From the NCBI RefSeq assembly GCF_058153355.1, contig NZ_CM177019.1: a stretch of DNA of 64,000 nt. The stretch is one strand, 5' to 3'. The position numbers were made by a program. How positions within the stretch are numbered: position 1 is the first letter of the stretch; the number at the start of each line of letters is the position of its first letter. Positions 34,101 through 37,100 of the stretch are shown here, piece after piece.

Positions 34101-37100
34101 CTCCATCATCATGGCCCGCATCATCGGCGTACCCCGCGCGTTCGCACGAGCAGCCTCACGATACAGATACGGCATCATGCGGCATTTCAGTTGCGTGAAG
34201 AAGCGCACCACATCACAGGACTCATCATCATAGGCCCACGGCACACGATAAGATTTGCTGCCGTGTAAACGGCTATGGCTGGAGAGCAAACCAAACGCGC
34301 ACCAGCGTTTGTAAACGTGCGCCGGAGCGGTATTCTCAAAGCCGCCGATATCGTGGCTCCAGAAGCCAAAACCAGAAAGGCCAATAGACAAACCACCGCG
34401 CAGGCTTTCCGCCATTGATTCGTAGTTAGCGTAACAGTCGCCCCCCCAATGTACCGGGAATTTCTGCGCACCAACGGAGGCCGAGCGGGCAAACAGGACA
34501 GCTTCCTCCTCGCCGACGGTTTCCTTGAGCACGTTCCACACCAGTTCATTGTAGATGTACGCATAATGGTTATGCATTTTCTGCGGATCGGAACCGTCAA
34601 ACCACTGAACATCGGTTGGAATACGTTCGCCAAAGTCGGTCTTAAAGCAATCAACGCCCATCGCGACCAGACCTTTCAGTTTATCGGCGTACCATTTACA
34701 GGCATCCGGATTGGTAAAGTCATAAATCGCCAGACCTGGCTGCCATTTATCCCACTGCCACAGCGAACCGTCCGGACGTTTGAGTAAATAACCTTTCTCT
34801 TGTAACTCTTTAAAGACAGGGGATTTTTGCCCGATATAGGGGTTAATCCAGACGCAGATTTTTAGCCCTTTCGCTTTCAGGCGGCGGATCATCCCTTCCG
34901 GGTCCGGGAAAGTCAGCGGGTCCCACTCAAAATCGCACCACTGGAAGGCTTTCATCCAGAAACAGTCAAAGTGGAAAACATGCAGCGGCAGATTGCGTTC
35001 CGCCATACCATCGATAAAGCTGTTTACCGTCGCTTCGTCGTAGTTGGTGGTAAATGAAGTGGTTAGCCACAGGCCGAAGGACCACGCGGGCGGCAGCGCC
35101 GGACGACCAGTAAAACGGGTATAACGATCAAGTACCGCTTTCGGCGTCGGGCCGTCGATAACAAAGTATTCGAGATATTCACTCTCAACGCTGAACTGCA
35201 CTTTGGAGACTTTCTCCGATCCCACTTCAAAAGAGACGCATTGGGGATGATTGACCAGTACACCATAACCACGGTTAGTCATATAGAACGGGATATTTTT
35301 ATACGCCTGTTCAGTACTTGTGCCGCCGTCCCGGTTCCAGGTCTCTACCGTCTGGCCATTGCGCACCAGGGCAGTAAAGCGCTCTCCCAGACCGTAAACT
35401 GTTTCGCCAACGCCAAGATCCAGCCGCTCAAACATATAATTTCGTTGATTATTCGTGTCCTGCACGTAGCCATTATTTTTCACCTGACTACCGGTAATAC
35501 GTTCGCCGTTGCGCAGAAAATCCAGTGACCAGAACTCACCTTTGCTGACACGCGCACTTAAGTTGCCACTTTTAAACTCAGCGTAACGTTCTGTGTTTTC
35601 GATTGTGACCTTCACGTCCTGCAAAATATTGAGCGGGTAATGAGGACCGTTATTCAGCGCCCCCTGAAAATGCTCAATCCGTACACCGACAATACCTTCC
35701 TGTGGGGAGAAAAAGCGCAGCGTAAATAAAGGCGTATCAAGCTGCCAGGTACGTTCACGCACATCACGGGGGGCAGCATAGACCACCATTTCATTACCCT
35801 GCTGTTCAACCTCGAACACCTGAAGCGGGTGAATCAAATTGAGGCCAGGTTGAATCAACCAGTTTCCGTCGCTAATTTTCATTGCCGTTCCTTAGTTCTG
35901 CACTTCTTGAGAGGTGAATTGTTGCTGGCAACGGCGTTTGCCCTGGGCCAGCTGTTCCATAACGGTTTTCAGATTGTGCGTCGTGAGTGAGTAGTAGCGT
36001 TTAGCGATAATCGCGCTCAGCAAGTAACAGATCGCCGGAACAATCGTGAATAGCGCGATAATGATGCTAATCGTGGCGCTGTTCTGCGCTTTTTCTGCCG
36101 CATCATATCAGCCATAAGCCAGCATCCAGCCGATAAGAGCGCCGCCGAAGGCCAACCCCAGTTTGAGCACAAACAACGTGCCAGCAAAACTGATCCCGGT
36201 CAGGCGTTTACCATTGCACCACTCGCCGTAGTCGACGGTATCGGACATCATTACCCACTGGATAGGTGTCACCAGTTGATGCAACACACCAATCACGAAG
36301 ATGAAGACAAACATGGTGATGCTGGCCTGCATAGGAACAAAGAACATCGCCAGGCTAATCACTGCCAGCAGGGCGTTCGTCCACCAGAAGATAGTGACTT
36401 TACATTTCCAGTCGGTCAGCGGTTTCGCCAGTGCGGACCCAATCAGGTTACCCACGCAATAAGTGGTAAGAAAAGCGACAAACACTTCCGGCGTACCCAA
36501 AATCCATGTGACGTAATACATCATCGCCCCGCCGCGTACGCACACCGCCAGAATATTGAAAATGGTCAGGAAACCGACAATACGCCACTGGTCGTTTTGC
36601 CAGATATCACGTAAATCTTCCCGCATAGACGTCGTTGTAGGTGGTGCTTCAACGCGTTCTTTAGTGGTGAAGAAACAAAATGCCAGCATCATAAATGCCA
36701 CCACGGAAAGGACCGCGATACCGCCCTGGAAACCGAGTGGTTTATTATCACCACCAATTAAATTAACCAGCGGCATCATCAGCACAGTAGAGAGCATGCC
36801 TCCCGCGGTCGCCAGCACAAAACGCCAGGATTGCAGCGAGATACGCTGAGTCGGGTCATTGGTGATTACACCACCCAATGCGCAGTAAGGGATATTGACG
36901 ACGGTATAAAGTAAGGTAAGTAGGGTGTAACTAATTGCTGCATAAATCATTTTTCCGTTCATACTGAGATCTGGCGTGCTATAGGCCAGTACACAGACGA
37001 TCCCGAATGGCAGTGCGCCAAACAGTACCCATGGACGAAATTTACCCCAGCGAGAGCGCGTTCGATCGGCCAACAACCCCATGCAAGGATCGGAAATCGC

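Follow-up and report, generated by a model that had tools for sequence, protein, structure and literature searches.

An in-frame TGA in yicJ, the neighbour of selC, as a very probable clone-private nonsense mutation in Escherichia coli

The yicJ gene of the E. coli genome considered here contains an in-frame TGA ahead of its native stop codon, and it lies next to selC, the gene for tRNA-Sec. Is this TGA a genuine nonsense mutation, a sequencing error, the natural end of a shorter protein, a leaky stop or a codon read as selenocysteine? We addressed this question in what we call the window, that is, the whole stretch of 64,000 nucleotides taken from contig NZ_CM177019.1 (RefSeq assembly GCF_058153355.1). 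We believe it very likely that a genuine, recent and lineage-private G>T nonsense mutation (Gly389stop) has inactivated yicJ in one clonal lineage of E. coli. The features on which the argument turns are collected in Table 1.

Table 1. Coordinates of the features discussed in the text, numbered from the first letter of the window
Feature	Position	Strand	Details
yicJ, GPH (glycoside-pentoside-hexuronide) family transporter gene, now pseudogene	35892..37274	-	460 codons + stop
Premature TGA, codon 389 (GGA>TGA, Gly389stop)	36108..36110	-	plus strand 36110 C>A
Remaining ORF, 388 codons, helices I-XI	36111..37274	-	NF008526 positions 1-388 of 460
Untranslated C-terminal remnant, helix XII + tail + native TAA	35892..36107	-	71 codons, same frame as upstream part
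yicI, alpha-xylosidase, downstream gene of the yicJI operon, intact	33564..35882	-	772 aa
selC (tRNA-Sec)	37567..37661	+	ARAGORN; Rfam RF01852, 83.8 bits
xanP (xanthine/proton symporter), 2-bp deletion (GA) at 23981	23055-24453	+	split into 328-aa and 151-aa ORFs
frz operon ROK-family kinase gene, 1-bp deletion at 27132	26991-27952	-	frameshift, 280-aa product vs 310 aa
eipD, IpaD/SipD-family needle-tip gene, ETT2-related eip cluster	45849-47299	+	A7>A6 frameshift at 47080

The yicJ reading frame and its premature stop

Translation of the minus strand between window positions 35880 and 37340 reads LIGWMLAYG-stop-YDAAEKAQNS around the premature codon and ends in TSQEVQN-stop. The TGA is the reverse complement of the plus-strand tca at 36108-36110; it is followed by 71 sense codons (35895-36107) and then by the native TAA (35892-35894), so that the frame amounts to 460 codons in total. 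The original prediction had described precisely this arrangement (GWMLAYG-TGA-YDAAEKAQNS, 71 further codons, 460 overall), and it is confirmed both by the translation and by the length of the K-12 gene, which is annotated at 1383 nt, the length of the frame in the window.

As references for yicJ we used K-12 W3110 and 24A16CRGN010, the latter being the closest complete genome. A base-for-base alignment of the 1383-nt frame contains 31 substitutions relative to K-12 W3110, almost all of them synonymous, seven relative to 24A16CRGN010 and no indels. Alignment with yicJ of other strains had been proposed as a check on the lesion, and in both references codon 389 is GGA (Gly) where the window has TGA; the sole change in the codon is a G>T transversion at gene position 1165. 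Downstream of the stop there is not a single substitution relative to 24A16CRGN010. Where the orthologues have a sense codon the window thus has an in-frame stop, past which the homology goes on without a change of frame, as in a nonsense pseudogene. The predicted nonsense lesion, with the loss of about 72 C-terminal residues, therefore holds, given the GGA of both reference genomes and the TGA shared by the other assemblies described below.

Four changes in yicJ are private to the clone, namely M29I, T115S, G389stop and one synonymous substitution, whereas the older differences from K-12 comprise one missense and 26 synonymous changes. The ratio of protein-altering to synonymous changes is accordingly 3:1 among the private and 1:26 among the older substitutions (Fisher p = 0.0035). 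This fits relaxed constraint, though weakly so, because any very recent branch is expected to show an excess of protein-altering changes.

Occurrence of the allele among genomes and assemblies

How common is the TGA? An 81-base query around the stop found matches in 5,419 of the 5,426 complete E. coli genomes; even the best had one mismatch, and no match was at 100%. The next query, of 55 bases with the T in the middle, was built so that every 28-base megablast word includes the T, and it can consequently match only genomes with the T allele; it matched none of the 5,426. The test is valid since the same query design, applied to a shared synonymous site in yicJ, recovered nine genomes. The T allele was likewise missing when a single representative genome for each GTDB species and JGI metagenome contigs were scanned for the exact pattern, and a 'repaired' 460-aa YicJ (I29, S115, G389), sought as the intact ancestor, is absent from a collection of 15 billion proteins.

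These counts bear directly on the idea that a YicJ of about 388 aa is a normal short allele in part of the species, to which we give practically no credence. A natural stop at this position in other strains had been named as the observation that would overturn the nonsense reading; none exists among the complete E. coli genomes, nearly all of which have this stretch of yicJ, and the nonsense reading stands. The YicJ equivalog profile NF008526 also argues against a short allele, as it extends over 460 positions, and the 71 codons after the stop still match its positions 390-460 in the same frame. A natural short allele was rejected on the absence of the T from complete genomes.

The rarity of the allele could be viewed quite differently. 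If the true genome had GGA and an intact yicJ, a one-off sequencing or assembly error would look just like an allele that is missing from 5,426 complete genomes, from the GTDB representatives and from metagenome contigs. The exact 388-aa truncated product is, however, recorded in Logan assemblies of public sequencing runs, where three contigs carry it. The Logan contig of SRR31441161 is 100% identical to the window over two stretches of approximately 22-23 kb (26108-47274 and 23564-45882). Moreover, the exact YicI protein of the window led us to an NCBI draft, GCA_015332025.1 (contig AAXEGZ010000020.1, labelled Escherichia coli), which aligns with the window over 22.3 kb without a mismatch and departs from it in two indels, of about 51 bp and 6 bp. 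Translation of this draft gives the same TGA in yicJ, and a yicJ protein is absent from its record. There are no SNPs among the three assemblies over 22 kb.

The 6-bp and approximately 51-bp differences mark GCA_015332025.1 as an assembly in its own right, made from a sister isolate. If the window genome and SRR31441161 are one isolate, as they may be, independence would come mainly from GCA_015332025.1. Given that the same T occurs in the k-mer-based assembly of SRR31441161 and in a draft set apart from the window by two indels, that the change is a substitution outside any homopolymer, and that the other lesions of the window are common to these assemblies wherever they overlap, we consider a sequencing error highly improbable. 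The lesion is reproducible at the level of assemblies, and because both contain the TGA we regard it, on this comparison, as a real allele inherited within a tight clone; the sequencing error that the original prediction had kept as an alternative is rejected for the same reason.

The lineage itself has few close relatives among complete genomes. The closest complete RefSeq E. coli genome is 98.3-98.5% identical over window positions 1-24000 and 99.6% identical over 33000-40000, while most complete E. coli genomes are about 96.6% identical over 1-24000. The window thus has no close match among complete RefSeq E. coli genomes, and its source is therefore a sparsely sampled E. coli lineage.

Selenocysteine recoding and the neighbouring selC

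In the window selC lies about 290 nt upstream of the yicJ start on the opposite strand, and the arrangement is identical in K-12. The original prediction held the adjacency of the TGA to tRNA-Sec to be most likely coincidental, and this agrees with the same synteny in K-12, where codon 389 is GGA. The proximity of selC to yicJ is conserved synteny with no functional link. A short RhuM-family remnant at 37770-37886, just downstream of selC, was probably left behind by an old island that had integrated at selC, and the K-12 and 24A16CRGN010 annotations list it as a pseudogene; apart from this remnant the selC site is unoccupied in the window.

Might the UGA nevertheless be read as selenocysteine, yielding a full-length selenoprotein YicJ? 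The codon is the right one, tRNA-Sec is encoded 1.46 kb away, and a small GCGC/GCGC hairpin lies 18 nt past the UGA. SelB binds the loop G-U of a SECIS element, whereas the loop of this hairpin, AGAACA, is without a loop G-U. The original prediction had identified no SECIS, and a covariance-model search was equally empty: an Rfam scan of positions 35700-37800 at E<=10 gave no match to a SECIS family, its only matches being tRNA-Sec and three at chance level. The same scan applied to the fdhF locus as a positive control detected SECIS_2 (RF01988) at 87.1 bits (E = 1.8e-19); the control element was located by a 100% match inside fdhF and is found at >=99% identity in 5,412 records.

Folding of the RNA downstream of the TGA, which had been recommended for excluding a SECIS-like element, was also carried out, but it failed to discriminate. 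Relative to shuffled sequences, the 66 nt after the yicJ stop have a folding-energy z of -1.43, whereas the genuine fdhF SECIS has a z of only -0.28; for this reason folding energy is uninformative here, and claims of a SECIS are better tested with a covariance model and a positive control. In K-12 the GGA codon is followed by the very same 40 nt as the stop in the window, and so no recoding element has been gained. Cysteine or selenocysteine is absent from the position aligned to codon 389, which is glycine in K-12, 24A16CRGN010 and MelB; the residue replaced is thus a glycine, placed in a periplasmic loop of a transporter, and not a redox cysteine. The adjacency of selC and yicJ, for its part, is universal in E. 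coli. Given the empty Rfam search beside a detected fdhF control and the unchanged downstream sequence, we do not believe that programmed recoding occurs in yicJ, and its chances appear vanishingly small. More generally, an in-frame TGA beside selC is not evidence of recoding, and yicJ in this clone should be labelled a pseudogene rather than a selenoprotein candidate or a short isoform.

Consequences of the stop, other lesions and known counterparts

With the nonsense reading preferred, the G>T change at codon 389 would end translation in the periplasmic loop between helices XI and XII and leave a 388-aa product. This product scores 897.6 bits against NF008526 (cut-off 836) over profile positions 1-388 of 460, and 461.6 bits against TIGR00792 (cut-off 231); Pfam PF13347 is on record for it. 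By score it belongs to the YicJ equivalog family, and yet no single product covers the full profile with its complete set of 12 helices. YicJ residues 6-446 can be aligned with the structures of MelB (PDB 4M64 and 7L17; E = 8e-55 for 4M64), and this places Gly389 in the stretch that separates the regions of helices XI and XII. In a hydropathy scan the final hydrophobic segment comes past the stop, with its centre at residues 405-417. The stop thus falls in the periplasmic loop that joins transmembrane helix XI to helix XII, and helix XII is lost together with the cytoplasmic tail.

Studies of C-terminal truncations of the 12-helix sugar symporters MelB and LacY have established that loss of helix XII destroys the carrier. 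Because these truncations behave in this way, a 388-aa YicJ that lacks helix XII and the tail would be expected to be unstable or inactive, and we infer that the truncated transporter is most likely inactive. The strain is accordingly predicted to be devoid of YicJ-mediated glycoside uptake.

Of the stop codons of E. coli, UGA leaks the most, and low-level read-through by near-cognate tRNA-Trp could give some full-length protein. One might go further and suppose that the read-through product (G389W) is present in useful amounts and that the gene is attenuated, not dead, a view with which the undamaged state of the 71 downstream codons would agree. That state is equally explained by a young mutation, as indicated by the lack of SNPs among the three assemblies over 22 kb, and the base after the stop is U. 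UGAU has proved a strong termination context in studies of termination, and little read-through is to be expected. We therefore find useful read-through very unlikely and retain inactivation as the preferred reading. A separate helix XII peptide made by in-frame re-initiation is implausible too, as the first candidate start codons in that frame, TTG followed by ATG, are already inside helix XII or past it.

Downstream, YicI is 99.87% identical to its counterpart in 24A16CRGN010, and the yicI ATG is preceded by a Shine-Dalgarno sequence of its own, AAGGAA. A mildly C-rich stretch of 225 nt (C/G 1.2-1.6) separates the yicJ stop from the start codon of yicI. As yicI would now lie behind 216 nt of untranslated mRNA, we infer that some polarity on yicI is possible, including Rho-dependent polarity.

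A gene-by-gene comparison of the window with the full annotation of the reference loci brought to light three disruptions besides yicJ, in xanP, the frz ROK kinase gene and eipD (Table 1). Some 31 kb of well-aligned sequence contain no indels other than the xanP and ROK kinase deletions, both of which are outside homopolymers, and a junction-word test found neither in any of the 5,426 complete E. coli genomes. The frameshift in eipD puts the last 73 residues out of frame; this gene also has a 105-bp in-frame insertion, at 46398-46502, relative to 24A16CRGN010. The xanP deletion is present in the SRR31441161 contig and in GCA_015332025.1, and all three lesions are in the Logan contigs wherever these overlap them; the three frameshifts are private to the same clone as the yicJ stop. 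Elsewhere, all 17 genes from waaG to ligB (window 1-15300) are intact, with no indels relative to strain N96, as are the genes at 58.8-64 kb, and no housekeeping gene of the window is damaged or contains an indel. Lesions that are limited to accessory genes and reproducible across assemblies have the look of real mutations filtered by selection.

The sister isolate adds differences of its own. In GCA_015332025.1 the frz PTS EIIC gene is shorter by about 51 bp (346 vs 363 aa), near 30564-30608 and with an 8-bp overlap in the alignment, a further lesion of the frz module within the same clone. The draft is also without 6 bp (window 45460-45465) in the 373-aa gene after the YopB/SseC-like gene. 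Genome decay of the kind seen in Shigella was considered and rejected: the draft with the allele is labelled Escherichia coli, and all annotated reference genes compared are collinear, with no interrupting element.

The frz-type carbohydrate island is complete at 26327-33269 on the minus strand, between yicH and yicI, and comprises a BglG-family regulator, PTS IIA, IIB and IIC, two aldolases, a ROK kinase and a lyxose isomerase; it is missing from the K-12 locus, in which yicH comes straight after yicI. The reference list of PMC12928451 includes papers on frz and yicJI (PMC2698472 and PMID 21477255) that reportedly tie both operons to the fitness of extraintestinal pathogenic E. coli. The lesions in yicJ, xanP and the ROK kinase gene, together with the EIIC deletion of the sister isolate, could be seen as hits on one neighbourhood of carbohydrate and purine uptake and as a selected shedding of the frz-yicJI fitness module in a new niche, as opposed to drift, a proposal that we find unlikely. 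Niche adaptation is one possible origin of a cluster of private inactivations in neighbouring uptake and catabolic genes; drift on a branch that has not been sampled accounts for the cluster just as well.

Downstream of selC-setC-yicL-nlpA-yicS, at 42145-58640, is the ETT2-associated eip/eilA/iatC island, with a gene for a SycD-like chaperone, YopB/SseC-like and IpaD-like genes and the HilA-like regulator gene eilA. Its inverse autotransporter has 3,128 aa as against 3,225 aa in the reference, the internal repeat array (approximately 51400-55200) differing in length. As the YopB-like gene and the gene that follows it are only 86% and 45% identical to the closest genome, the composition of the island points to a mosaic. 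Between nepI and yicN, at 60261-60918 on the plus strand, a RelE/ParE toxin is encoded with an HTH antitoxin, and the pair is 100% identical in 24A16CRGN010.

How does yicJ compare with known systems? The nearest counterpart is K-12 yicJ (WP_000834439.1), the first gene of the yicJI operon, which has the same locus, selC-yicJ-yicI synteny, length and frame; the gene of the window differs from it in the TGA for GGA at codon 389 and in two more private missense changes, M29I and T115S. The melibiose permease MelB is the structural archetype of the GPH family, and the alignment with it places Gly389 before the last helix. MelB is, however, a different transporter from YicJ, and the expectation for helix XII is carried over from MelB and LacY. 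With fdhF-type selenoprotein genes, in which a UGA is immediately followed by a SECIS (RF01988), yicJ shares an in-frame UGA in an E. coli gene. In contrast to them, yicJ is without a SECIS in the Rfam scan, its ancestral residue is glycine rather than cysteine or selenocysteine, and its downstream sequence is as in strains with GGA. A further likeness is to the strain-private pseudogenes of E. coli clones that are flagged by NCBI PGAP, which represent the same single-event disruption of an accessory transport or catabolic gene in a tight clone. The yicJ case, with other private frameshifts alongside, presents no difference of substance from these; its significance beyond annotation is very small, and it is an ordinary, recent, clone-private pseudogene, with nothing in it that a specialist would find unusual.
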